From a candidate division WWE3 bacterium RIFOXYC1_FULL_40_10 (GTDB taxonomy: Bacteria > Patescibacteriota > WWE3 > UBA101185 > UBA10185): DNA of 64,000 bases. Below are positions 1,816 to 15,010 of the stretch, piece after piece; position 1 is the first letter of the stretch; the number at the start of each line of letters is the position of its first letter. A program made the position numbers and the translations under genes. The DNA is taken from assembly GCA_001773215.1 (NCBI GenBank), contig MEWB01000001.1:550099-614098 (forward strand), written 5' to 3'. The notes below the pieces were generated by a model. The model was not told where the DNA came from, made no database searches, and saw only the letters and a program-made list of their open reading frames with translations.

Positions 1816-4245
1816 TTACTTAATTCCCTCGACAGAAAGATCTCTAACTTGGCAGGTAGATCCTGTAATTTTACACAAATATCTAACATAGAATTTGGCT
1901 GTATTAACGTCCTCGAGAAAAATTTCATGGTTCTGGGTTGCATTATCCTCGTATGTGACATCTTTTAACCAATTAGCACCGTCCAAACTATATGAAACTG
2001 TGATCGTGTTGTTAAAAGTATACGTTTTACTATTGAGGACTATATTTGAAACCTGGGCGGGAAACTCAAAATAGTACACCAAAGGTTTTTCTGGATCCCC
2101 GGAATAGTTGAATATGATACCATCCATTGCCTGAAGCCACCCCTCGTTTGTTATCGAGTCGAATAACCATTTATTGCTTTTCTTTGTTTCCAAATCTGCC
2201 ACGTATTTATAGGAACCCCCTGATTCCTCAAAAGCCTTTGTGCCGTTTTGAGACCCATCGTACAGATTCAATCGATACAACCTAGACTCACCAGGATTAA
2301 ACTCGCGTCTCTCTGAATAATCCATTTTTAATTTGATGTATAACAATTTATCCTTAACAGGAACGGTAATTACGGGGTCATAAAAAACTTCCTTGTCACC
2401 CTCTTTTGAGTAAATAACAGAAAAGTCATTCGGATTATCTCCCGCCGACACTTCAAACGTAACTCCCGGGGGAACTGCAAACAACGTTCGTAAGCTCACT
2501 TCCGCCGGGGGCACTTTAAAAGAAAATGGGTATACTATTTCACTGTCCTTATTGTTAACACTGGCCAAATGGTAATAGCCATAGGTCATGGGTAAGTTGT
2601 AGTTTCCCAAATAGGATACTCCAACATTTTTCCAGTAACTTGCGTCTGCAAACATTTTGCTATAACTGAAATCATCATAATATTGCCACCTAACATTTGG
2701 TGAATTATCCAAAGCTATAGGCAACTTTTTCTCGAATGTAATCTCGTGAATCTGAAAATTCGCGATTTTATCTATCAACTTGTTTTTGGCTGATCCCGAT
2801 AGATACAAATTTTTGAAGTCTGGAATGCTTACGAAATAGTTCTTTCCCGGGGAATTTCGAAACCTTTCATACTCGTCTGAATCCATCAGTAGGAAATAGC
2901 TTTCCGTAAACCAAACTTTGTTCTTACTTTCGGAGCCAAAATAGAAATCAAAGAACGTATCTTCCCCATCTCTTACAAACACTCTGTCTCCCGGTACCAT
3001 TTTACCCTTTAAGTATTCGTGAACTGCTCTCCAGCTATATTCCACATTGGTGTCTAGGGGAAATCCGTAAGTTGTCCTAACCCTCAGGGGAGTAATTGCC
3101 AAAAATGTAATGAGCACCAATAACACCGATAATATCCCACGGAGGGGTACCCTTAGCCGAATTTCTTCTAAGTATTTCGACGTAAGCTCGGATATACTCC
3201 ATAGCCCGTAAGAGATTCCAAGTAGGTACACCGGTAATATGAAGAAAAAATACTTTTCCTCAAACCAATGAGAGGGCCGAACAAAATACAGCTGAAGGAA
3301 CGGGTAGAAAGTCCACAAAAGGACAAAACTTAGAAGCCTAATTTTCTTACGTCCGATCATACTCATAACCCCAAAGGCAAAAACCGTCGTATACAGAAAA
3401 AGCCGGATTCCAGGTCCCAGCCCAAACCAGGAAAACATTGCTAAATAAAACTTTAGAGAAAAATCTAAAGTGGTGCTGTCCATCTGCCGGGCTAAAGAGT
3501 ATCCCAGCTCCAGGGGATGAGAAGGACCATAGTTTACAAGTTTTGTAAAAAGCCCTACATAATAACCTGATCCAACGTTTAGAAATACGATTATACCTGC
3601 AATACAGATACCCATAAACAGCAAGAGTTGATATCTATACTTCTTTAATACAGCAGGATTCACCAAAATGTTTGCGATAAGAAAAACACCAGACATAGCG
3701 GCGACATATAGAGAAGCTGTTTGAGTAAGGATGTTAAGAATATTAGCAAGAGCGTATAACCCTAAAAACCTTACATTTATTACAGACTGCTTGAGATCGT
3801 CTAATAATCTTATTAGGTAATAGATTACTAGTAAAGTAAAAAACATGAAGTACGAATAATGGAGTATCTGCTGTGAAAATTCTACAGCCATAGGAGATAC
3901 TGCCAATAATAAAGCCGCAGAGAGTCCTACTTCATCCCCACCCAATTTTTTAGCTATCAAAAACAGCAGGTATACGGAGCTAACTCCAAACATTACTGAT
4001 GGAAGGCCTAAGGTAAACGTGTTTCTGCCAAATATGGAGAACAGCTTTACAAAGTAATAGTGAGTTGGAGTGGCGACCTCTTTGTATATTTGCACCCAAC
4101 CCCTAGAGGCCTGTTGAACCGACAGGGCTTCATCGTACCAAACATCTCTGGTAGCTAAACCCCTCATACGCAACGCCAAAGCCAAAAACAGGATCAGTAC
4201 CAGGATAATATCTTTCTTACTTAGCTTTTTAATTATTTCGTACAT
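1816..4245 (-). CDS. GT-C fold membrane glycosyltransferase (PMT_2/ArnT-like, GT39/GT83-type) with a large C-terminal extracytoplasmic domain
   Basis: About 11 TM helices. There is a DE motif in the first loop (RDVWYDEALSVQQASRGW). A roughly 430-aa soluble C-terminal domain follows. Confidence 0.6.
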   Translation of the reverse strand: MYEIIKKLSKKDIILVLILFLALALRMRGLATRDVWYDEALSVQQASRGWVQIYKEVATPTHYYFVKLFSIFGRNTFTLGLPSVMFGVSSVYLLFLIAKKLGGDEVGLSAALLLAVSPMAVEFSQQILHYSYFMFFTLLVIYYLIRLLDDLKQSVINVRFLGLYALANILNILTQTASLYVAAMSGVFLIANILVNPAVLKKYRYQLLLFMGICIAGIIVFLNVGSGYYVGLFTKLVNYGPSHPLELGYSLARQMDSTTLDFSLKFYLAMFSWFGLGPGIRLFLYTTVFAFGVMSMIGRKKIRLLSFVLLWTFYPFLQLYFVRPSHWFEEKYFFFILPVYLLGISYGLWSISELTSKYLEEIRLRVPLRGILSVLLVLITFLAITPLRVRTTYGFPLDTNVEYSWRAVHEYLKGKMVPGDRVFVRDGEDTFFDFYFGSESKNKVWFTESYFLLMDSDEYERFRNSPGKNYFVSIPDFKNLYLSGSAKNKLIDKIANFQIHEITFEKKLPIALDNSPNVRWQYYDDFSYSKMFADASYWKNVGVSYLGNYNLPMTYGYYHLASVNNKDSEIVYPFSFKVPPAEVSLRTLFAVPPGVTFEVSAGDNPNDFSVIYSKEGDKEVFYDPVITVPVKDKLLYIKLKMDYSERREFNPGESRLYRLNLYDGSQNGTKAFEESGGSYKYVADLETKKSNKWLFDSITNEGWLQAMDGIIFNYSGDPEKPLVYYFEFPAQVSNIVLNSKTYTFNNTITVSYSLDGANWLKDVTYEDNATQNHEIFLEDVNTAKFYVRYLCKITGSTCQVRDLSVEGIK

Positions 4246-6092
4246 AAAATTAGCAAATCAGCGCCCCTAACTTTTGAATTTTTTCCTTTTGAAACCAAGC
4301 CATTTATTTCTTGCTTATAGTGACTCGTGATTTTACTATTTGCATTGTGGTCAAAAAACCGGCGAGCAAATGAAAGCACGCCCATTTTGTCCCACAGGTT
4401 TAGCGCTTCCTTTGTTATTGTATATGAATAACTCACAAGCTTAAAACCCCTAGCCTCAAGTTTTTTTGCGTAGCTTTTATGATCATATAGGTGGTAATGA
4501 TTAAGCATTTTGTTTCTGTATTTAACGTAAAGGGGGATCAAAAAATTCATTTTTACTTGAGCCAACAGTTGGGATACATAAAGATACTCACTAAAATAAG
4601 CGCTTGGGGACGTAAACAAAAAGTACCCGCCAGGCTTTAATACTCTGTAAATTTCCGAGAGTGTTGCATCATTATCGGGAATGTGCTCAATTACAGAATT
4701 AGAAAAAACAAAATTCACGCTTTCATCTTTAAGCGACATCTGTTCCGCCCCTTCCAGGAAAATTTTCTCGTAACGGCAATTCTTGATTGCTTCCTCGACA
4801 TCCTTGGCCTCCCCATTGTCGACCCCGTATGTAAACTTGCCGGCAAAACACATGCTTGATATTAAGCCATCCCCGCAACCAACATCCAAGGAGGGTCCTA
4901 AAAACTCATACTCCTTTACCGATTCATACATCATTTTTAATTCCAACGCTCTAAATAGCACAGCCGAAGGGTGGTCATACACTTTAAACAACTCTTCAGT
5001 ATCTACCATTTTTACTTTCAAGGAAGGAAATTTCACTTTAGTTTCCAAATTGGCATCTGAACAAAAGATAACTCTTTGTTTAGCGACACTGTATCGATAG
5101 TCCTCTTTTATTATCACTCTGTATAATCCCACAACAGTACCAAATAGAGCGCCTAGCTGGTCCACGCTTCCGGTTCTGAAAAAATTCAAGAAATAGTAGG
5201 TATTCTGCAAAGTCAGATTCACCAAAAATCTAAATAGCTGATCGATATTCGCGATCCTAAAAAATCTAAAATAGAAAATCAGTAGGTTTTGGATTCGATG
5301 ATAAGGCGCCGGACGTGCTTTTTTTACTTTTCCCGACTCAACATGATGTTCAAGACTCACCTTGGGATCGAAAATGAGCTTATAACTGAGTCTTTGAATT
5401 TTTAGGGCTGCATCAGCTTCGTGATAATCACCCAAGCCTTTAATATAGATAGTATCAAAACCGCCGATTTGCTTTAGCAAAGAAGTTCTGGCCGACCAAT
5501 TACACGCTTCCAGGTTTGATACTTCTAGCGGCTTTTCTATTTTTAGACACTCCTTATAGTTAGACCCCAAGGTGAAAACTCCGCTCTTTAGGAAAGTGCT
5601 AACCTCATACATTTTGTTTTCGTAAAGGTAATTATTGTAAATTTTATACACCAGCTTTAAAACCCAGTTTTCGCTGTTTTTAAAGTTTTCCAATACAGCT
5701 GTAAGATCTCTGGAGTGCAGTCCGGCTTGGTTCATTATCGTAGGCCCGGTAACACCCCCAACAGCTATATCCCTTTTAAAAGCTTCCACCATACTTCTAA
5801 ACCACTCGGGATGCATGGTAGTGTCATCATCGATTCTTACAAATATCTCACATGTCGCTCGATCCAAGGCTTCGTTAGCTGCCCCGATTAAGCCACTTTT
5901 ACTTTGGATAAAATACTCAATATCAAGCTTTTTGTATGATAAAACCAATTTTTGAATTTTCTCATCATCTTTCATACCAGCCAAAAGAATAGTGAAATCT
6001 TTTAATGATTGCCTATCCAGGCTATCTAAACATTTTTTAAGGGAGTTCAATCTATTCGAAGTAGGTATAAAGATATTAGCTGCTTTACTCAT
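4233..6092 (-). CDS. Bifunctional glycosyltransferase family 2 (N-term) / class I SAM-dependent methyltransferase (C-term)
   Basis: GT2 signature at the N-terminus (FTILLAGMKDDEK, IDDD). The C-terminus carries LDVGCGDGLIS ... VIEHIPD ... LKPGGYFLF, a Methyltransf_11-like fold. Confidence 0.65.
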   Translation of the reverse strand: MSKAANIFIPTSNRLNSLKKCLDSLDRQSLKDFTILLAGMKDDEKIQKLVLSYKKLDIEYFIQSKSGLIGAANEALDRATCEIFVRIDDDTTMHPEWFRSMVEAFKRDIAVGGVTGPTIMNQAGLHSRDLTAVLENFKNSENWVLKLVYKIYNNYLYENKMYEVSTFLKSGVFTLGSNYKECLKIEKPLEVSNLEACNWSARTSLLKQIGGFDTIYIKGLGDYHEADAALKIQRLSYKLIFDPKVSLEHHVESGKVKKARPAPYHRIQNLLIFYFRFFRIANIDQLFRFLVNLTLQNTYYFLNFFRTGSVDQLGALFGTVVGLYRVIIKEDYRYSVAKQRVIFCSDANLETKVKFPSLKVKMVDTEELFKVYDHPSAVLFRALELKMMYESVKEYEFLGPSLDVGCGDGLISSMCFAGKFTYGVDNGEAKDVEEAIKNCRYEKIFLEGAEQMSLKDESVNFVFSNSVIEHIPDNDATLSEIYRVLKPGGYFLFTSPSAYFSEYLYVSQLLAQVKMNFLIPLYVKYRNKMLNHYHLYDHKSYAKKLEARGFKLVSYSYTITKEALNLWDKMGVLSFARRFFDHNANSKITSHYKQEINGLVSKGKNSKVRGADLLILCTK

Positions 6093-7132
6093 TTTGTTTT
6101 TACGAAACCTTCTGCATTTCCAACTTTATGAACTTTCAACACTTTTGCTAAAAAATAACTTAACTCCTTCTTTCTCATAACTATCCTAAACAAATCATGG
6201 TCAGATACCGTCCTAATGCCCTGAATCCTTTTTCGCTTAATCAGTGTACTCTCAAGATTAGTTATATTCCAAAATATCGCCTGGTGGATCCACAAAAAAG
6301 GTTTGTAATCCCCTCTAAGCAATGAGTACCAAGCAAGCCCAAGCCATAAAAACAAGTGTATCGGCAGTATCCTGGCTAAACTCCCGCCCTCCAAATTCTT
6401 AATTAACGTTAATATATAGTTCTTTGTTCCATGAAACTTGGCATTATAATTGTTTTTGCTTTTTCCAAGTATCACTGTGCTTGTGCCAAATTCATGAAAA
6501 ACCACTGAAGCAGGAATATACACAGCTTTAAACCCCGCTAACCAGGATCTCCAACCCAGGTCAGTTTCTTCCACATATATAAAGTAATCTTTATCGAAAC
6601 CTTCGATCTTTTCGAAAGTCTCCTTTCGTATGAACATGCCCGCAGATTTAGCAGCCAATATAGGAACACTTTCGTTAAATTCACCATTATCTAGCTCCCC
6701 TGCCTTAACTCTTTGAACTAAAAACCCGTTTTGGCCTATATATTCCCCAACGTAGTCAAGTTTGTTACGTTCTTTCGACAAAATCAGCTTACATTGTACT
6801 ATGCCTGTATTAGGGTCTGAGTCTAGCGCTTTGGCTGCCTCATTTTCCCAATTTGGATCAACCAAAGTGTCGTTGTCCAAGAATCCCAAATATCTACCTT
6901 CACTAACCTCAACGCCTTTATTTCGAGCATACGCAGGGCCATAGTTTTTGTCCAAAGCCACCACTTTTATTTGCTTATATTTGTCTTTAAGAAAGTCAAC
7001 GGTTCCATCATCAGAACCATTATCGACTACAATTACTTCCAGATCAGTCGAGTTAGCCGAAAGAACTGAGTTAACGCATGCATCCACGTAGTTTTTCCCA
7101 TTGTACGTTACTATAATTACCGAGGATCTCAC
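6089..7132 (-). CDS. Glycosyltransferase family 2
   Basis: SSVIIVTYNGKNYVDACVNSV, VVDNGSDDGT and a DxD motif (FLDNDT). Confidence 0.7.
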   Translation of the reverse strand: MRSSVIIVTYNGKNYVDACVNSVLSANSTDLEVIVVDNGSDDGTVDFLKDKYKQIKVVALDKNYGPAYARNKGVEVSEGRYLGFLDNDTLVDPNWENEAAKALDSDPNTGIVQCKLILSKERNKLDYVGEYIGQNGFLVQRVKAGELDNGEFNESVPILAAKSAGMFIRKETFEKIEGFDKDYFIYVEETDLGWRSWLAGFKAVYIPASVVFHEFGTSTVILGKSKNNYNAKFHGTKNYILTLIKNLEGGSLARILPIHLFLWLGLAWYSLLRGDYKPFLWIHQAIFWNITNLESTLIKRKRIQGIRTVSDHDLFRIVMRKKELSYFLAKVLKVHKVGNAEGFVKTK

Positions 7133-8280
7133 TTCCCGATAGCCTCCCTATACCACTCCAGGTATATTCGGGCTGTGTTTTCAGGCGAACGCTCTTTAGC
7201 TTTTTTTAGTGTTGCCTGTTCTATCTGCTTAACCACCTCGGGATTCTCCGCTATATATTTGAACGCATCATGCCATTTATCGTTTTCAATCAAATAGCCG
7301 GTTTTCAAGTGATCTAAATCTTCAATAAAATGCCCTATTTTAGTGGCAATAACACATTTTCCATAACTTGCGGCATGGAACAAAGGCCCGCTTGACCCCA
7401 TAGATAGTATTGCCGGATTACAAACAGCATACGCCTTTTCATATAGGTCGTCCTGCTGTTCCATATTAATAAATCCCTTCATTTCTACTTTCCCCTTCAT
7501 CGCAGTCCCTTCTATCTGGTTCTTGATTTCGTCAAAAGCCTCCTCCTGCCCTTTTATAATGCCGCCAGCCAATATCAATCTAAAATCTGAATGCGGGTTG
7601 GCCGTTAAGTATTTTTGAAACCCATCCAGTAAGTAACCTAACCCTTTTCTTCTAGCCATATAACCAAAGTAGAAAAAATAATGTTCTTTAGGTAAATTTC
7701 GTAACCTCTTTTGAGGAATTGCTATTGGTATAACTTTTACTCTTTTAGCATCAACCCCATAATCCGTACTAATAATTTTTCGGGTAAGCTCTGTGTGAAC
7801 TATTTGTCTGCCCGAAAGCAGTGAAATAGATTTGTAAATATAATGAAAGGCTAATGAAACCATAAAAGGTTTAACGTACTTTGGGTTTTGATGAAATATT
7901 CTAATTAGCTCGTGATCAATTTGTTTTTTATAAACCGCAGCATGAACAGTGACAACCGTTTTAAATCCCATTATTTTTAACATGAGTAAAAGGAGTGGAA
8001 AAAACATAGCCGTAATCAATCCCCCATACATATTTAGCTCATGTTGCAGGTGTATCAAATCAGGTTTGTCGGCCAATACCTGCCTAAGTATTTCATAAAC
8101 ATACGATAGTGACTTCGACCAGACAAGTTTAATCTCCCCACACCCTTGAATTTCCAAATTTTTGGGATCCTTATCTGCATAAACGATTAGCTCAATACCA
8201 GGATTGTTGGCAAGCCCACTCGTAATTGATTGCGAATAATGACCAACAGGCAACATTCCGGATATAAATACTACTTTCAT
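7129..8280 (-). CDS. Glycosyltransferase family 1 (GT4-like)
   Basis: GT-B architecture. The C-terminal half has FGYMARRKGLGYL and an E-x7-E-like region. Confidence 0.6.
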   Translation of the reverse strand: MKVVFISGMLPVGHYSQSITSGLANNPGIELIVYADKDPKNLEIQGCGEIKLVWSKSLSYVYEILRQVLADKPDLIHLQHELNMYGGLITAMFFPLLLLMLKIMGFKTVVTVHAAVYKKQIDHELIRIFHQNPKYVKPFMVSLAFHYIYKSISLLSGRQIVHTELTRKIISTDYGVDAKRVKVIPIAIPQKRLRNLPKEHYFFYFGYMARRKGLGYLLDGFQKYLTANPHSDFRLILAGGIIKGQEEAFDEIKNQIEGTAMKGKVEMKGFINMEQQDDLYEKAYAVCNPAILSMGSSGPLFHAASYGKCVIATKIGHFIEDLDHLKTGYLIENDKWHDAFKYIAENPEVVKQIEQATLKKAKERSPENTARIYLEWYREAIGK

Positions 8281-9215
8281 ATTTTCATTTTTTCCTCAAT
8301 TATATTCTCGATCATTTTCTCAAAAGTCACACTTGGAGTCCAACCGGTTAATTTTCTTAACTTTGTATTGTCTCCCACCACAGGGTTTCTTCTTCTGGTC
8401 AAAACTTGATTGTTTTCTTTAACATGTTTTTGCCAGTCAAGCTTTAAATAGTCAAAAACTATGCGAACAAAATCCCTCACTGTGTGCTTATTACCTGTCG
8501 AAACCACAAAGTCGCCGGGCACACCAAGCTGTAGTACCCTCCACATTGCTTCCACGTAGTCGGGAGCATATCCCCAATCTACTTCGGCATCCAAATCACC
8601 CAACACTAATTCTGTTTCCAAACCTCTCTTTATTTCCAAGGCGGTCTTAATTATCTTCATGGTAACAAATTTCTCCTCTCTTAATACAGACTCATGGTTA
8701 AATAGAATCACGTTGGAAATAAACATTCCTTGAGTATCCCGATACATTTTTCCTAACTGCATCCCACTATATTTAGTTATAGCATAAGGGTTTTTTGGAT
8801 CCACCGGTGTATCCTCACAAACCATCTCCTTGCTAGGGTCTCCAAAAATTAGCGATGAGGATGCATAAAGTACTTTTGTATGTACAGACTCCTGTTTTAT
8901 AGCTTCCAAAAAGTTGGTGTAACCTTTAACATGAACGTCGAAGCTTTTTTCCACTAGTTTAGCCCCATCAATCGCTGTGTCTTGCGAAGAGTGGTGATAG
9001 GCAGCCAGGTAGTATAATTCATCTGGTTTGGTATTTTTTATCAAGCCTGCCACCATAGCTGAATCCAGGATATCTACTTTTGAAATCCACTCAAATCTGG
9101 TTTCGTCAAAATAATCCAAGTCCAGTCCTAATAAACCGTAATTCTTTCCCCTCAATAGCGAAGTGAGTAATACACCATCCTGGCCTTTACTCCCAACTAT
9201 TATTGCTTTGCTCAT
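8277..9215 (-). CDS. GMD-family short-chain dehydrogenase/reductase, likely GDP-4-keto-6-deoxyhexose reductase (Rmd-like)
   Basis: GxxGxxG (VGSKGQDG), YxxxK, and the GMD/Rmd-type motif [13 protein letters not shown] shared with the upstream Gmd. At 312 aa it is Rmd-sized. Confidence 0.6.
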
Positions 9216-11521
9216 CTAACAATTTCCAATCTGGGTAAAGGGAATACTAGGCTCCCTCCGGAATCCATGTATTTACCTTCTTTACGTATAAAGTTTTCTC
9301 TAAAATGCCAAGGGAGTACAACCATATACTCGGGGCTATCTTTGCGAGCCTCTGCCTCCGAAACAATAGGTATCCCTGTAGTCGGAGTAACCCTTCCGAA
9401 TTTGTAGTCATTCACCTCGGCTATACAAGACATTAAATCAGAAGTAATCCCACAGTACTGTAAAATTACATTTCCTTTTGTTGAAGCCCCATACCCGATA
9501 ACTTTTTCCCCAGAGTTTTTTCTTTCTCTCAAAAAATTTATCAATGTTCTTCTACTGTTTTCTACTCTTTTCTTAAAATCTTCATAAACCAAGTTACTTG
9601 ATAAACCCCTGGCCTCTTCGTCTTTTAGTATGTCCTCGATCGTTTCCGTGGCTTCTCTATACTTAGAGTCCTTTTTAGACACCATAATTAGAAAACTGGC
9701 TCCGTTTGTATCGTTAAAACTAACATCAATTATTTTCAACCCGGCTTTATCAAACATCCACTTCAACGATTTCAATGAGTAATATTCCAAATGCTCATGG
9801 CAAATAGTGTCGTAGGAGGTATTATCCAACATATGAGGCATATAGCTCTGCTCCAATACCCATACTCCATCATCCGCTAAAACTTCGGAGATTTGCTTTA
9901 CAATTTCAAACGGGTGTTCCAAGTCGTAAAACATTGCGATCGAGGTAACTACTTTAACTTTTTGAGAGAATCTTTGTTTTATAGTATCAGCGCTGAAAAA
10001 CTCAGGTATACGAACTATATTATTGGGATAATACTCTTTAAATTTCTCGGCAGTAGGATCAACGCCAACCAAAACCAGATCCTTAGCTTGGTATTTTTGT
10101 AACATGGTACTGTCGTTACTTCCTATATCCAGAACAATATCCCCCATGTTTATATCCACTCTTGATTCTATTTTTCGTACAATTTCGGTTAAATGTTTCA
10201 CCATCGAATTATTTAACCCCGAACGATAACCGTAATTTTCACCGTATAGAAGTTCTAAATCGTAGTTATGCTTCAACTGCAGCAAACCGCAGCCACCCTC
10301 CCCACATCGAACTATTGCCAAAGGGCCTTCCGGTACTTTTTCGTTAGGTAAAGGAAATACACCACTTAATCCAAATATACCTAAATCCAACACATCAATT
10401 AGCCTGGTATTTCCACAAATTCTGCAGCTATCTATTTGCTTGTACAGCATTCTTCCAATTGTTTTTGGTGCCTCAACAGCCACCGGTTTAGCGGATTTAT
10501 ACTCCCTTAGATCTTCTTGAACCATAATGTCAATTAACTGGTCAAATTTAGTTTTAGGTGACCATCCCAGTTTGGTTCGAGCTTTTGAATTATCCCCAAG
10601 GAGGACATCTACTTCAGTAGGTCTAAAATATCGGGCATCTATCTCAACAATTGTATTTCTTGTTTTCTTGTCAATTCCCTTCTCATTTATCCCCTCGCCA
10701 ATCCACTCCAGATTAATCCCAACAAGTGAAAATGCTTTTTCACAGAATTCCCTCACAGTATGTGTTTCACCCGAAGAAATTATAAAATCGTCCGGTGTTT
10801 CTTGCTGGAGCATAAGCCACATCGCCTCAACATACTCCGGAGCATATCCCCAGTCTCTTTTGGCATCAAGGTTTCCTAAGTAAAGTTTCTCCTGCAAACC
10901 GTAATAAATCTTTGCTACTGCTTGTGTTATCTTTCGAGTAACAAAGGTTTTACCTCTCCGAGGAGACTCATGGTTAAACAAAATGCCATTACAGGCGAAT
11001 AAATTGTAGGCTTCACGGTAATTTACAGTAGTCCAATAAGCATATAGCTTGGCACTGGCATATGGAGACCTGGGATAAAACGGTGTATTCTCGCTTTGGG
11101 GTATTTCTTTTGCTTTTCCAAATAACTCAGATGTAGACGCTTGATAAAAACGTGCATTCGGACAGTTGTTTTTTAACCCATCCAGCAATCGAAGAACACC
11201 TATGGCGTCAATTTGAGCTGTATACTCCGGAACTTGAAATGAAAGATGCACGTGTGACTGGGCACCTAAATTATAAATTTCGTCAGGCTTTACTTCGGCC
11301 AAGATTTTATCCAAATTATTGGAATCAGTAAGGTCTCCATAAATAAGCTTTAGCTGCCCGCCGGTTGAGTGCGGAAACTGGATAATATGGTCAATTCTCT
11401 CAGTATTAAATGTAGAAGCCGCCCTCCTTAGGCCATATACTTCATATCCTTTTTGTAAGAGAAACTCCGCCAAATAAGAACCGTCCTGACCAGTAACGCC
11501 GGTAATTAAAGCTTTTTTCAT
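9212..11521 (-). CDS. gmd: GDP-mannose 4,6-dehydratase (N-term ~350 aa) fused to a TylC3/TcaB9-like NDP-hexose C-methyltransferase (Zn-binding Methyltransf_13 + C-terminal Methyltransf_14 domains)
   Basis: [30 protein letters not shown] ... [13 protein letters not shown] is classic Gmd. A 4-Cys Zn site follows (CRICGNTR ... CGEGGCG), then SAM-binding VLDIGSNDS and a long C-terminal domain. Confidence 0.75.
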
Positions 11522-11570: not shown

Positions 11571-12866
11571 TCAATCTCCTTCGAACTTAACTTGGGCATA
11601 GTATCTTAAACCATGTTCTCTAAGTACTTCTCCTCCTTTTAGGTCGGGCAAATCTACAACAAAGGCCAACTCTACAATCTCGGCACCTAGTTTCTTGAGT
11701 AGCCTCGCAGCTGCAAAGGAAGTTCCTCCTGTGGCTAAAAGATCGTCTACCAATAATACTTTTTGACCATACGAAATAGCGTCTCTGTGTACTTCAATAG
11801 TATCAGTTCCGTATTCTTTTTGGTAGGTTTCATACTCACATTCGGCAGGTAGTTTTCCCTTTTTTCGTATCGGAACAAAACCCACTCCAAGCTTATTGGC
11901 CAATGCACCCCCCAAAATGAAGCCTCTACTTTCGATGCCTGCTACAACATCTATGTCAATTTCCGAGTATCGGGTTACGAAATCGTTAATACAAATGTTA
12001 AAACTAACTTGATCCTTTAACAAGGTCGTAATATCCCTAAACATCACACCTTCTTTTGGCCAATTAGGAATTGTTCTTATCTTAGACTTAAGTCCACTTG
12101 TAGCTAACACCTCTACCATCGCTACTATAAGCTTTTTCACCCTTTCGGAATTAGCCTTCATGCGAGTAATAACCATTTCAAAATTGACCGGCTCCTCATT
12201 TTCTTTCCAACAGTCGTAATCGGTGGACATCGCGATCGACTGGTAGGGTATTCCCAATTCGTTAGCCAAAATCACCTCGGGACAGGTGGACATATTGATT
12301 ATGTCTGCCCCCAATTTCTGAAACATCCTACTCTCGGCCTTAGTAGAAAACCTAGGGCCTTCGATTGTCACTATCGTTACGTCTTTGTTATACGAATATC
12401 CAAGGTTCTCACAGATTTCACATAGTCGGCTGCGCATTCCACCGTCGAAGGGCTCCGACATAGGTGTATGTACAACACCCTCTTCGCAAAAAGTATTTGG
12501 TCTACTACGTGTAAAATCTATAAATTGATCGGGAAAAACAATATTTCCGGGCTTGATATCTTCTTTTAAGGAACCCACTGCTGTTGTTGCTAAAATATGA
12601 GTCACACCCAAATCTTTAAAGGCTTGAATATTTGCTCGATAGTTCACTTTCGAAGGTAAAATACCATGCTGCTTGCCATGACGAGAGATTATTGCCACAT
12701 CAACTCCGGAAAGCTTTCCAAGTGTTATGGGAGAGGAAGGAAAACCCCATTTAGTTGGTATTATCTTCTCTTCGTAGTGAGTAAGTAACCGGGGATCATC
12801 AAGACCAGACCCCCCGATAATTCCTATAAGCATAAAAGAATAGTAGTAGCAAATTAGGGGGAACAC
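11571..12866 (-). CDS. Fusion protein: MTA/purine nucleoside phosphorylase (MTAP/PNP family) + adenine phosphoribosyltransferase. The likely true start is the internal ATG near 12833 (MLIGIIGGSG).
   Basis: N-terminal half matches MTAP (IGIIGGSGLDD ... ISRHGKQH ... MSTCPEV). C-terminal half matches APRT nearly end to end (PKEGVMFRDITTLL ... GIESRGF ... VLLVDDLLATGGT). Confidence 0.75.
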   Translation of the reverse strand: MFPLICYYYSFMLIGIIGGSGLDDPRLLTHYEEKIIPTKWGFPSSPITLGKLSGVDVAIISRHGKQHGILPSKVNYRANIQAFKDLGVTHILATTAVGSLKEDIKPGNIVFPDQFIDFTRSRPNTFCEEGVVHTPMSEPFDGGMRSRLCEICENLGYSYNKDVTIVTIEGPRFSTKAESRMFQKLGADIINMSTCPEVILANELGIPYQSIAMSTDYDCWKENEEPVNFEMVITRMKANSERVKKLIVAMVEVLATSGLKSKIRTIPNWPKEGVMFRDITTLLKDQVSFNICINDFVTRYSEIDIDVVAGIESRGFILGGALANKLGVGFVPIRKKGKLPAECEYETYQKEYGTDTIEVHRDAISYGQKVLLVDDLLATGGTSFAAARLLKKLGAEIVELAFVVDLPDLKGGEVLREHGLRYYAQVKFEGD

Positions 12867-13300: not shown

Positions 13301-14908
13301 CTAAGCCTTAAGCCTCTTGGGCAATAAATGGCGGAATAAACTCTTTGACGCATTAATCCAAAATTTGGGATGATACCAACTTACCTTTGTCTGCTCCTCA
13401 TCGAAGTCGAGTAAGTGTCCAAGTATCCTCTTAGCGGCCATAAGATAGAACCTGATGTCAGCCCAGGTTCTGATACTTAAGATTTTTCGCATAATATATT
13501 GGGGCGTAAAAAACGACGAGTAGAGTGACTGAGTAAGCTCATACAATCTCTCCGTAGAAAAATGGGTCTTCATAACCGGCGCCCTCATATCAAACGCTTC
13601 GTAGTCAAAAGGGTCTACGGTTAACCACCCTTTTTCGACACATTCCTTATATAGTGGCGTACCTGGGTAGGGAATTGTGATAGTGGCTTGCATAGTATCA
13701 ACGTAACCTTTTTTGAACAGCTCTCGTGCCAAATTAATGGTGTTTTGAGCCATCTCTTCGGTTTCCCACGGATAACCTAACATAATTGTAAGATGAGGCT
13801 CTAATCCGCCTTTTTTCGCCATTTGGACTCCTTTTTCAATCTCCTCAATCTTTAAACCCTTATCAAGCTTGTCCAGAGTCTCTTGATTACCTGATTCCAT
13901 ACCGTACAAAATGAACCTAAAATTCGCCTTACCCATTAAATCGTAGTATTCCTGGTTTAAGGCATTTAAACGCATGTTACAGGAATAAACCACTTTTTTA
14001 CTGTAACCTGATTCAATCAACAGCTCACAAAACTTTTTGAGAGGAGGCCCCACAAAAAGTGTTCCGGCATCATCGAAAATTTCTTTTACCCCATACTTAT
14101 CTACTACATACTTCACCTCGGCAAATAACCTTTCGGGCGAAAAGCGGCGATAAGAGCCCCTTGGATTAATTGTGTGATCCCAAACACAAAAAGTACATCT
14201 ATTCCACCAGCAATCCCTGCCTGAATACATGTAAGTAGCTGGAGTATACTTATAATTTCCGTTCTCATAAGCATACAATTCCCATTTGGTTATGTCTCTA
14301 TCAACAAAGGGCAGGTCATCAAGTTTATGTGTAAGCTTTGCCGGGCCGGTCCACCAATATGTATCCTCATGTTTTGTCTGCTCTGGTAAAATGTGTTGCT
14401 TTCCCGTGTCTCTCCCCCAAATTCCCGATGGTACTTCTTTACCCTGAGATATAGAATCAGCCAAGTCCGAGAGTAAAAAGTCATAGTCACCACCCAAAAT
14501 AATATAATCTACTTTACATGCCCCCAAAGTCTCTTTTGGCAAATAGGTAACGTGATCACCTACCATTACAATATCCATACTTTTGAACTGCTCTTTAAGC
14601 TCATTCACAAGCTTCCAATGCATTTTTACAACAGGGGCCTTAGTTTCCAGTAACAATAAGTCAGGCTGTTCTTTTTCGAGTTGAGCCAACCATTCTTTGT
14701 AACTTTTCTTTTCTGCAATACCATCCATCCAGACCACCTCGTACCCCCGTTCTTTTGCTATGGTAGCAGCATAAGCAGGGATCATTGGGTATATATATGT
14801 AGGTGCATTGAAAAACTGAAACTGGCGATTTTGCGATAGCAACGGTACACCCTTGTCTGTCTCAATGGGCGGATAGGCGATGACAATTTTAAAAGTATTT
14901 TTTTGCAT
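13301..14908 (-). CDS. B12-binding domain radical SAM protein (module 2). Start moved to the ATG at 14908 (MQKNTFKIVIAYPP); the ORF-track start at 14947 is a TTG.
   Basis: Same architecture as 136..1593, with an N-terminal B12-binding fold (IVMVGDH, YIILGG). The Cys motif is CX4CX2C (RDCWWNRCTFCVW), not CX3CX2C. The N-terminus aligns with rSAM1 when the start is at 14908. Confidence 0.7.
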   Translation of the reverse strand: MQKNTFKIVIAYPPIETDKGVPLLSQNRQFQFFNAPTYIYPMIPAYAATIAKERGYEVVWMDGIAEKKSYKEWLAQLEKEQPDLLLLETKAPVVKMHWKLVNELKEQFKSMDIVMVGDHVTYLPKETLGACKVDYIILGGDYDFLLSDLADSISQGKEVPSGIWGRDTGKQHILPEQTKHEDTYWWTGPAKLTHKLDDLPFVDRDITKWELYAYENGNYKYTPATYMYSGRDCWWNRCTFCVWDHTINPRGSYRRFSPERLFAEVKYVVDKYGVKEIFDDAGTLFVGPPLKKFCELLIESGYSKKVVYSCNMRLNALNQEYYDLMGKANFRFILYGMESGNQETLDKLDKGLKIEEIEKGVQMAKKGGLEPHLTIMLGYPWETEEMAQNTINLARELFKKGYVDTMQATITIPYPGTPLYKECVEKGWLTVDPFDYEAFDMRAPVMKTHFSTERLYELTQSLYSSFFTPQYIMRKILSIRTWADIRFYLMAAKRILGHLLDFDEEQTKVSWYHPKFWINASKSLFRHLLPKRLKA

Positions 14909-15010
14909 ATTAGTAATAGTACTACATATAGATGTATATGGATACAATGGAATTTAGACCTATAAGATGATAAACTCCTGTTACATCAAAACTAAACAAA
15001 GGAGTTGAAC

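Follow-up and report, generated by a model that had tools for sequence, protein, structure and literature searches.

We analysed a 64,000-nucleotide stretch of the genome of the candidate division WWE3 bacterium RIFOXYC1_FULL_40_10 (GCA_001773215.1, contig MEWB01000001.1, positions 550,099 to 614,098; hereafter the window, with positions counted from its first letter), and concentrated on two adjacent genes of its reverse strand. One encodes a 769-amino-acid (aa) protein that joins a GDP-mannose 4,6-dehydratase (Gmd) to a sugar C-methyltransferase (CMT), and the other a 312-aa short-chain dehydrogenase/reductase (SDR). The original prediction, made from the DNA letters, had read this pair as a Gmd fused to a methyltransferase of the TylC3/TcaB9 type and followed by an Rmd-like reductase, together leading to a GDP-linked C-methyl-branched 6-deoxyhexose. 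The features of the two genes, with the basis of each assignment in brackets, are as follows (SAM, S-adenosylmethionine; pLDDT, predicted local distance difference test).

9212..11521, reverse strand: Gmd-CMT fusion gene, 769 aa (open reading frame list, Pfam, NCBIfam, orthologous fusions, AlphaFold2 pLDDT 90.8)
10490..11521, reverse strand: Gmd domain, residues 1-344 (TIGR01472, catalytic residues, Foldseek)
10451..10489, reverse strand: interdomain linker, residues 345-357, predicted to be disordered (AlphaFold2 pLDDT < 50)
10244..10426, reverse strand: four-cysteine zinc module (Methyltransf_13), residues 366-426 (Pfam, TcaB9 alignment)
9725..10147, reverse strand: class I SAM-binding methyltransferase domain, residues 459-599 (Pfam Methyltransf_23, residue mapping)
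9233..9709, reverse strand: CMT C-terminal domain (Methyltransf_14), residues 605-763 (Pfam; the nucleotide-sugar-binding domain in solved homologues)
9212..9215, reverse strand: ATGA stop/start overlap of the fusion gene and the SDR gene (sequence ...GTT AGA TGA / ATG AGC...)
8277..9215, reverse strand: 312-aa Gmd paralogue lacking the catalytic Glu, proposed GDP-4-keto sugar 4-reductase (S-S-L / Y144 / K148, NHESVLR)

Both open reading frames were exactly as predicted, and all motifs quoted for the two proteins were found in them. The 769-aa reading frame is uninterrupted, and a GAGG ribosome-binding site lies 8 nt 5' of its ATG. The fusion gene, the SDR gene and, downstream of these, the genes for a family 4 glycosyltransferase (GT4), a family 2 glycosyltransferase (GT2), a GT2-methyltransferase fusion and a PMT_2 glycosyltransferase (GT-C) form a single translationally coupled operon, in which neighbours overlap by a few bases. 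A Pfam search of the 769-aa protein returned GDP_Man_Dehyd (7.5e-148, residues 5-333), Methyltransf_13 (3e-10, residues 366-426), Methyltransf_23 (5e-15, residues 459-599) and Methyltransf_14 (4.4e-49, residues 605-763), in agreement with the zinc module, class I SAM fold and long C-terminal domain that had been read from the letters.

An AlphaFold2 model of the protein, built on 47 fusion sequences, had a mean pLDDT of 90.8 with a predicted template-modelling score (pTM) of 0.55, and the linker was disordered. In this model, the protein has the appearance of two entire enzymes joined by a flexible tether. The fusion had been expected to channel unstable GDP-4-keto-6-deoxy-D-mannose directly into C-methylation; the model gives this no support, and the disordered linker and low pTM speak against channelling through a fixed tunnel. 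The benefit of the fusion is probably proximity and fixed stoichiometry.

The N-terminal half reads as a bona fide Gmd (EC 4.2.1.47). It scored 560 bits against the NCBIfam gmd equivalog TIGR01472 (trusted cutoff, 415 bits), which bears out the predicted Gmd N-terminus, and its catalytic residues T130, E132, Y154 and K158 are intact, as are the NHESPRR motif and the Rossmann GxxGxxG (G8, G11, G14). All fusions examined keep the catalytic T/E/Y/K set in their Gmd halves. Foldseek comparison of the AlphaFold2 model with human and Aquifex Gmd gave TM-scores of 0.94-0.97, at about 60% identity.

The last 420 aa of the protein can be aligned over their whole length with three solved sugar C-3 methyltransferases, MtmC (1e-63), KijD1 (1e-41) and TcaB9 (1.5e-39); the structures in the full-length alignment were 4rv9, 5t64 and 3ndi. 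The modelled CMT half superimposes on MtmC, TcaB9 and KijD1 with target-normalised Foldseek TM-scores of 0.92-0.93 and a root-mean-square deviation of about 2.0 Å, at only 25-31% sequence identity. The order Methyltransf_13, class I methyltransferase, Methyltransf_14, together with the end-to-end alignment, confirms the tripartite TylC3/TcaB9 architecture.

We then mapped the active site of TcaB9 onto the CMT half, fixing the TcaB9 numbering by means of the H181N mutant chain (chain index = native + 2). The zinc-binding cysteines of TcaB9 have their counterparts in C366, C369, C406 and C411, which are invariant in 92 relatives and 47 fusions. Tyr76, Glu224 and His225 of TcaB9 correspond to Y430, E576 and H577, all kept, and these three residues, the four zinc cysteines and SAM motif I are conserved in the 92 relatives (SAM-domain residues: D465/G467 in motif I, and D488). 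At two further positions the correspondence breaks down, with D533 in place of His181 and C574 in place of Tyr222, so that the TcaB9-type active site expected for this protein is present in part. Entry titles in the PDB list the TcaB9 mutants Y76F, H181N, Y222F, E224Q and H225N, which shows that these residues were probed by mutagenesis; active-site roles of His181 and Tyr222 are presumed from these titles.

The two exchanged residues covary, the Asp + Cys pair occurring in 84 of the 92 relatives and the His + Tyr pair in the other 8. A search of a 1.84-billion-protein library returned 2,550 clusters at 50% identity (E <= 1e-30), and the complete Y-D-C-E-H signature was present in 140 of the 150 best cluster representatives. 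These patterns place the CMT half in a large, coherent Asp/Cys subfamily, distinct in sequence from every characterised member. As a determinant of GDP specificity the pair was ruled out by eight Gmd fusions to classical His/Tyr-type CMTs; because of these fusions, the pair is best described from the sequences as the mark of a clade, not as an established switch of specificity.

By analogy, the methylation site is most likely C-3, since every homologue of solved structure methylates C-3 and the 2-hydroxylated sugars evalose and virenose are 3-C-methyl sugars. It is unlikely that Asp/Cys-type CMTs methylate C-5 in the manner of NovU, giving a 5-C-methyl (gem-dimethyl), noviose-like GDP-6-deoxyhexose. 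C-5 is likewise alpha to the 4-keto group, NovU is a member of the same enzyme family, and the exchanges H181 to D and Y222 to C set the 140 representatives apart from all solved C-3 methyltransferases; TcaB9, KijD1 and MtmC, however, are all C-3 enzymes, the Glu/His base pair and Tyr76 are kept, and the natural 6-deoxy C-methyl hexoses that retain the 2-OH (evalose, virenose) carry the methyl group on C-3.

The 312-aa SDR matched GDP_Man_Dehyd (Pfam, 1.3e-68) and TIGR01472 with 195 bits, under the cutoff of 415; like those of the fusion protein, these scores lie well outside chance expectation. It keeps S120, Y144 and K148, the Rossmann residues G8/G11/G14 and the Gmd-type NHES..R motif (NHESVLR), so that a check of the Ser/Tyr/Lys catalytic triad found all three residues; at the position of the Gmd catalytic Glu, which acts as the base in dehydration, it has Leu. 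This Glu is missing in 119 of its 120 closest relatives (mostly Leu or His), and the Tyr, the Lys and NHES..R are kept in all 120, which their sources name 'GDP-mannose 4,6-dehydratase' or 'hypothetical'. The best matches in the PDB were Gmds (9e-53 to 1e-36), ahead of the Rmd entries 2pk3 (4.6e-24) and 6x3b (2e-18), and Rmd-like SDRs in the compared loci show NH[IT]GPGQ, which we take to be the Rmd motif, where the 312-aa SDR shows NHES..R. The product of 8277..9215 had been described as a GMD-family SDR with the Gmd motif, which holds, and as Rmd-like, which in terms of homology does not.

These results point to a Gmd-derived paralogue, outside the Rmd family, that has lost dehydration and retained its redox machinery. 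Because the Glu is lost but the Ser/Tyr/Lys machinery is kept, the natural inference is that the protein is a 4-ketoreductase, Rmd-like in role; 4-ketoreduction is a side activity of some Gmds. A GMER-like epimerase/reductase role was considered and rejected, as the residue at the Glu position is variable and there is no Cys/His pair at what we take to be the epimerisation positions of GMER.

We investigated the gene neighbourhoods of related CMTs in GTDB species genomes, using the CMT-domain alignment as the query and the best 80 of at least 600 matches, so that the following frequencies are not unbiased. The loci belong to the candidate phyla radiation (CPR), Omnitrophota, Bacteroidota, Planctomycetota, Verrucomicrobiota, Chloroflexota, Proteobacteria, Firmicutes and Cyanobacteria; cultured carriers among them are Spirulina subsalsa FACHB-351 (L062), Herminiimonas fonticola S-94 (L055), Methylocystis sp. 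JAN1 (L073), Paraburkholderia and Streptomyces, and the module is also present in DPANN archaea. In 30 loci, an SDR resembling the 312-aa protein (39-50% identity to it, 30-36% to Gmd) was located directly 3' of the CMT or fused to it (as in L004), and all 30 of these proteins lack the Glu; no SDR of this type stood elsewhere in the loci. A true gmd was present within 10 kb in 25 loci, adjoining the CMT in 9, and 15 mostly proteobacterial loci carry another Gmd-like SDR directly 5' (40-46% identity) in which the Glu is retained. Altogether, a Gmd-family SDR adjoins or is fused to the CMT in 47/79 loci and lies anywhere in the locus in 55/79, and gmd was the best NCBIfam model for every partner SDR tested. 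The minimal form of the module (L084) consists of a GT4, a Gmd-CMT and a Glu-less SDR, and in L086 a CMT-Gmd protein and a Gmd-like SDR occur within a cluster that holds an STT3 oligosaccharyltransferase. This comparative evidence strongly suggests that the Gmd, CMT and SDR activities are tied together functionally.

We regard it as quite unlikely that the 312-aa protein is no 4-ketoreductase and that it serves in epimerisation, binding or regulation, with reduction carried out by the Gmd domain or the CMT half. Such a division of labour has precedents, as bifunctional Gmds exist and MtmC, the best solved match (1e-63, compared with about 1e-40 for TcaB9 and KijD1), is a bifunctional methyltransferase and ketoreductase; the residue replacing the Glu varies (Leu, His, others), and a Glu-less SDR next to the CMT is missing from three orthologous CPR loci (L002, L003 and L011). 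On the other side stand the linkage of all 30 SDRs of this type to a CMT and the strict retention of Ser/Tyr/Lys, the Rossmann glycines and NHES..R, which indicate an active NAD(P)-dependent enzyme in the same pathway, and, against epimerisation, the lack of the Cys/His pair that GMER uses.

The 120 proteins most similar to the full-length fusion include 56 Gmd-CMT fusions, 27 CMT-SDR fusions in the reverse order and nine close stand-alone CMTs. Some SDR halves of the reverse-order proteins are true Gmds (54% identity), and others are Glu-less or divergent Gmd-like. In a neighbour-joining tree of CMT domains (rough, with no support values), the Gmd-CMT fusions spread over several separate clades, and the window protein clusters with five CPR or metagenome orthologues. 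Because there are two gene orders plus the His/Tyr class, these sequences would require at least three independent fusion events.

This distribution bears on the substrate of the CMT half. Sugar C-methyltransferases that have been characterised biochemically all act, to our knowledge, on dTDP-sugars of antibiotic pathways, and the CMT half might accordingly take as its substrate a 4-keto sugar bound to dTDP or CDP, or else a non-sugar, the fusion serving for co-regulation only. This is highly improbable given that Gmd fusions exist in either order and are spread over several CMT clades, and given that the neighbours are Gmd-family SDRs, not RmlB-type enzymes: no dTDP- or CDP-sugar dehydratase adjoined these CMTs in the best loci, and in those with no Gmd-family neighbour the flanking genes encode glycosyltransferases, methyltransferases or an aminotransferase. 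That an assembly or frameshift error joined two separate genes in what is, admittedly, a metagenome-assembled genome can be practically dismissed, because the same architecture, with a comparable junction, occurs in at least 56 other, independent protein clusters from different sources (40-62% identity to the 769-aa protein), and because the closest database entry, a partial protein (P0001) from the sister assembly of candidate division WWE3 bacterium RIFOXYD1_FULL_40_11, is 100% identical.

Several further arrangements were observed among these homologues and loci. In L085 (GCA_053534515.1), two dehydratase-CMT fusions stand in tandem (3708-6020 and 7001-9421), the one a non-Gmd SDR with a His/Tyr CMT and the other a Gmd with an Asp/Cys CMT, accompanied by a GFO_IDH_MocA oxidoreductase and a DegT aminotransferase. 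In L087 (7001-10819), a Gmd-CMT of the His/Tyr type precedes an FdtA-like cupin and a DegT aminotransferase. The contents of the L085 and L087 clusters hint at C-methyl amino sugars that are GDP-linked. In five further homologues of about 640-740 aa (P0024, P0043, P0051, P0098 and P0112), a Gmd and a Gmd-like half are fused in tandem; the second half of P0098 lacks the catalytic Glu (S-S-A), and this protein looks, from its sequence, like a Gmd-reductase fusion without a methyltransferase. Two other Gmd proteins (P0117 and P0119) are split by inserts of about 310-380 aa, one of them with a LAGLIDADG_3 Pfam match, and are probably encoded by intein-containing gmd genes.

Viral contigs (IMG/VR) were scanned for Asp/Cys-type CMTs, and the best 80 loci (L088-L167; e.g., L126, L127 and L144) of at least 600 matches were compared, so that these frequencies too are not unbiased. 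CMT-SDR fusions of about 730-750 aa were present in 34 of these 80 loci, many of them on giant-virus metagenome-assembled genomes (GVMAG), and L127 carries a Gmd-like-CMT fusion in the same order as the window protein. On several phage-like contigs gmd adjoins the CMT gene (phage-like loci: L101, L102, L105, L108, L114 and L119). Viruses thus appear to carry the sugar-branching module.

Taken together, we consider it reasonably likely that the operon is a three-activity module for the synthesis of a C-methyl-branched, GDP-linked 6-deoxyhexose, probably a GDP-6-deoxy-3-C-methylhexose, which would enter a glycan of the cell surface. In the first step, the Gmd domain would convert GDP-D-mannose to GDP-4-keto-6-deoxy-D-mannose, as its equivalog-level match and intact catalytic residues suggest. 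The tethered CMT half would then deprotonate the carbon beside the 4-keto group through His577/Glu576 and methylate the resulting enolate from SAM, a step suggested by the homology to TcaB9, KijD1 and MtmC and by the fusion and neighbourhood evidence. In the third step, the 312-aa SDR would reduce the 4-keto group with NAD(P)H, yielding a GDP-6-deoxy-3-C-methylhexose of the evalose or virenose type. Finally, the GT4 and GT2 enzymes are predicted to build the sugar into a lipid-linked glycan, which flippases and GT-C (PMT_2) proteins encoded nearby would export and transfer.

A number of observations weigh against this pathway. The case for each of its steps is built on homology, residue conservation, gene fusions and gene order. 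Of the residues mutated in TcaB9, two are changed here (His181 to Asp and Tyr222 to Cys), and substrate positioning or regiochemistry could differ. The AlphaFold2 model has no defined interface between the two halves of the fusion protein (pTM 0.55). The genes annotated in the window, up to about 41 kb, did not include one for a GDP-mannose pyrophosphorylase. In L085, L087 and L080 the CMT is followed by aminotransferases instead of the reductase. Lastly, because L002, L003 and L011 lack an adjoining Glu-less SDR, either the reductase is not obligatory in cis or there is another C-4 reducing activity; in these three loci the Gmd domain, the CMT or an enzyme encoded far away may perform the reduction.

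The two genes are surrounded by further genes of the same strand that bear on the fate of the sugar, as follows.

7129..8280, reverse strand: GT4 glycosyltransferase (4-nt overlap with the 312-aa SDR gene; Pfam)
6089-7132, reverse strand: GT2, overlapping gene of the same operon (open reading frame list, Pfam)
4233-6092, reverse strand: GT2 + Methyltransf_11 fusion, overlapping gene of the same operon (open reading frame list, Pfam)
13301..14947, reverse strand: B12-binding radical SAM protein, HpnJ-like below the cutoff (Pfam, NCBIfam)

Orthologues of the GT4 (54-60% identity) stand behind the (Gmd-)CMT gene in loci L001, L002, L003 and L011, and this enzyme is a candidate transferase for the branched sugar. 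In the same four CPR loci, orthologues of the radical SAM protein encoded at 13301-14947 (60-74% identity) lie directly 5' of the (Gmd-)CMT gene. Its nearest model is HpnJ, with 175 bits, far under the cutoff of 578; HpnJ is associated with hopanoid sugar modification, and the protein may further modify the same branched sugar. The window holds two such B12-binding radical SAM proteins, the second at 136-1593 on the same strand.

Two more fusion proteins were observed beside these genes. The 619-aa product of 4233-6092 combines an N-terminal GT2 with a C-terminal Methyltransf_11 class I methyltransferase in one protein, and may unite a transferase with an O-methylase. Between the radical SAM gene and the Gmd-CMT fusion gene, 11571-12866 (reverse strand) encodes a 431-aa protein in which an S-methyl-5'-thioadenosine (MTA) phosphorylase is fused to an adenine phosphoribosyltransferase (TIGR01694, 291 bits > 275; TIGR01090, 217 > 186; NCBIfam). 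This protein may carry out one-protein adenine salvage from MTA or 5'-deoxyadenosine, by-products of SAM chemistry.

All these genes are part of a glycan-assembly island that extends from position 1 of the window to about 37.6 kb (37619). Besides the two radical SAM proteins, it encodes many GT2 and GT4 enzymes, two Wzx-like flippases, about six PMT_2/GT-C proteins, a DUF2079 protein, an LPG_synthase_TM protein, a UDP-glucose dehydrogenase and a GtrA-fused GT2. For a small CPR genome, this surface-glycan island is unusually big.

A more speculative idea, which we regard as rather improbable, is that the Asp/Cys-type CMTs are more than GDP-specific versions of TylC3 and carry out a different chemistry altogether (C-5 methylation, another stereochemistry or a Cys-assisted reaction), in CPR bacteria perhaps together with the HpnJ-like radical SAM protein to give a doubly modified or rearranged branched sugar that would be new to glycans. 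If true, this would mean a widespread and unseen class of surface sugars, given the spread of the module over many bacterial phyla, DPANN archaea, phage-like contigs and giant-virus metagenome-assembled genomes.

On the reading of the operon as a source of a GDP-linked C-methyl sugar, the fusion protein and the 312-aa SDR constitute a directly testable enzyme set for GDP-6-deoxy-C-methylhexose synthesis, to which GDP-mannose, SAM and NAD(P)H would be the only additions expected to be needed, and the long-proposed GDP route to methyl-branched deoxysugars appears widespread. The comparison suggests that the surface glycans of bacteria, archaea and viruses contain methyl-branched deoxyhexoses much more often than structural studies have revealed. 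The module is also subject to systematic misannotation, the fusions and the Glu-less SDRs alike being named automatically as 'GDP-mannose 4,6-dehydratase'; even P0001 is deposited only as 'GDP-mannose 4,6-dehydratase, partial'. The suggestion that the fusion was previously undescribed stands as far as the literature searched is concerned, in which, with most subscription journals outside reach, we found no Gmd-CMT fusion and no characterised GDP-sugar C-methyltransferase; in sequence databases, however, the fusion is not rare.

The window proteins can be set beside several known systems. NovU, the enzyme of noviose synthesis, belongs to the same family and acts on an NDP-4-keto-6-deoxyhexose; it differs in methylating C-5 and in using a dTDP substrate, and serves here as an alternative in regiochemistry only. 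The Gmd/Rmd pathway to GDP-D-rhamnose in Pseudomonas aeruginosa and Aneurinibacillus thermoaerophilus shares with the proposed pathway both the 4,6-dehydration and the subsequent 4-ketoreduction by a second SDR, whereas the window would add C-methylation in between and has a Glu-less Gmd paralogue as its candidate reductase.

The closest precedent in logic, and the one GDP-linked route that appeared in the literature searched, is the in silico proposal for virenose synthesis in Coxiella burnetii, which runs from GDP-mannose through Gmd (CBU0689) and C-3 methylation by a TylCIII-like enzyme (CBU0691) to a reduction; it is covered by a scheme of 2012 and a paper of 2011 on GDP-mannose in Coxiella (PMC3539893, PMC3204966). 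The Coxiella CMT was reported to be 42-44% identical to TylCIII, EryBIII and AviG1, of which AviG1 acts on a dTDP-sugar according to a review, and in a 2026 review virenose synthesis is still only a gene region. The proposed order of reactions is the same in the window, but the Coxiella CMT is encoded by a separate gene and the window CMT is fused to its dehydratase.

With the C-3 methyltransferases TcaB9, KijD1, MtmC and TylC3/EryBIII, the CMT half shares the four zinc cysteines, the class I SAM fold and Methyltransf_14. It differs from the dTDP-sugar enzymes in its fusion to Gmd and in having Asp/Cys instead of His181/Tyr222. Its context points to a GDP-linked substrate with a 2-OH, whereas the dTDP enzymes take 2-deoxy or 3-amino substrates, and it is found in primary surface-glycan clusters, whereas they are found in antibiotic clusters.

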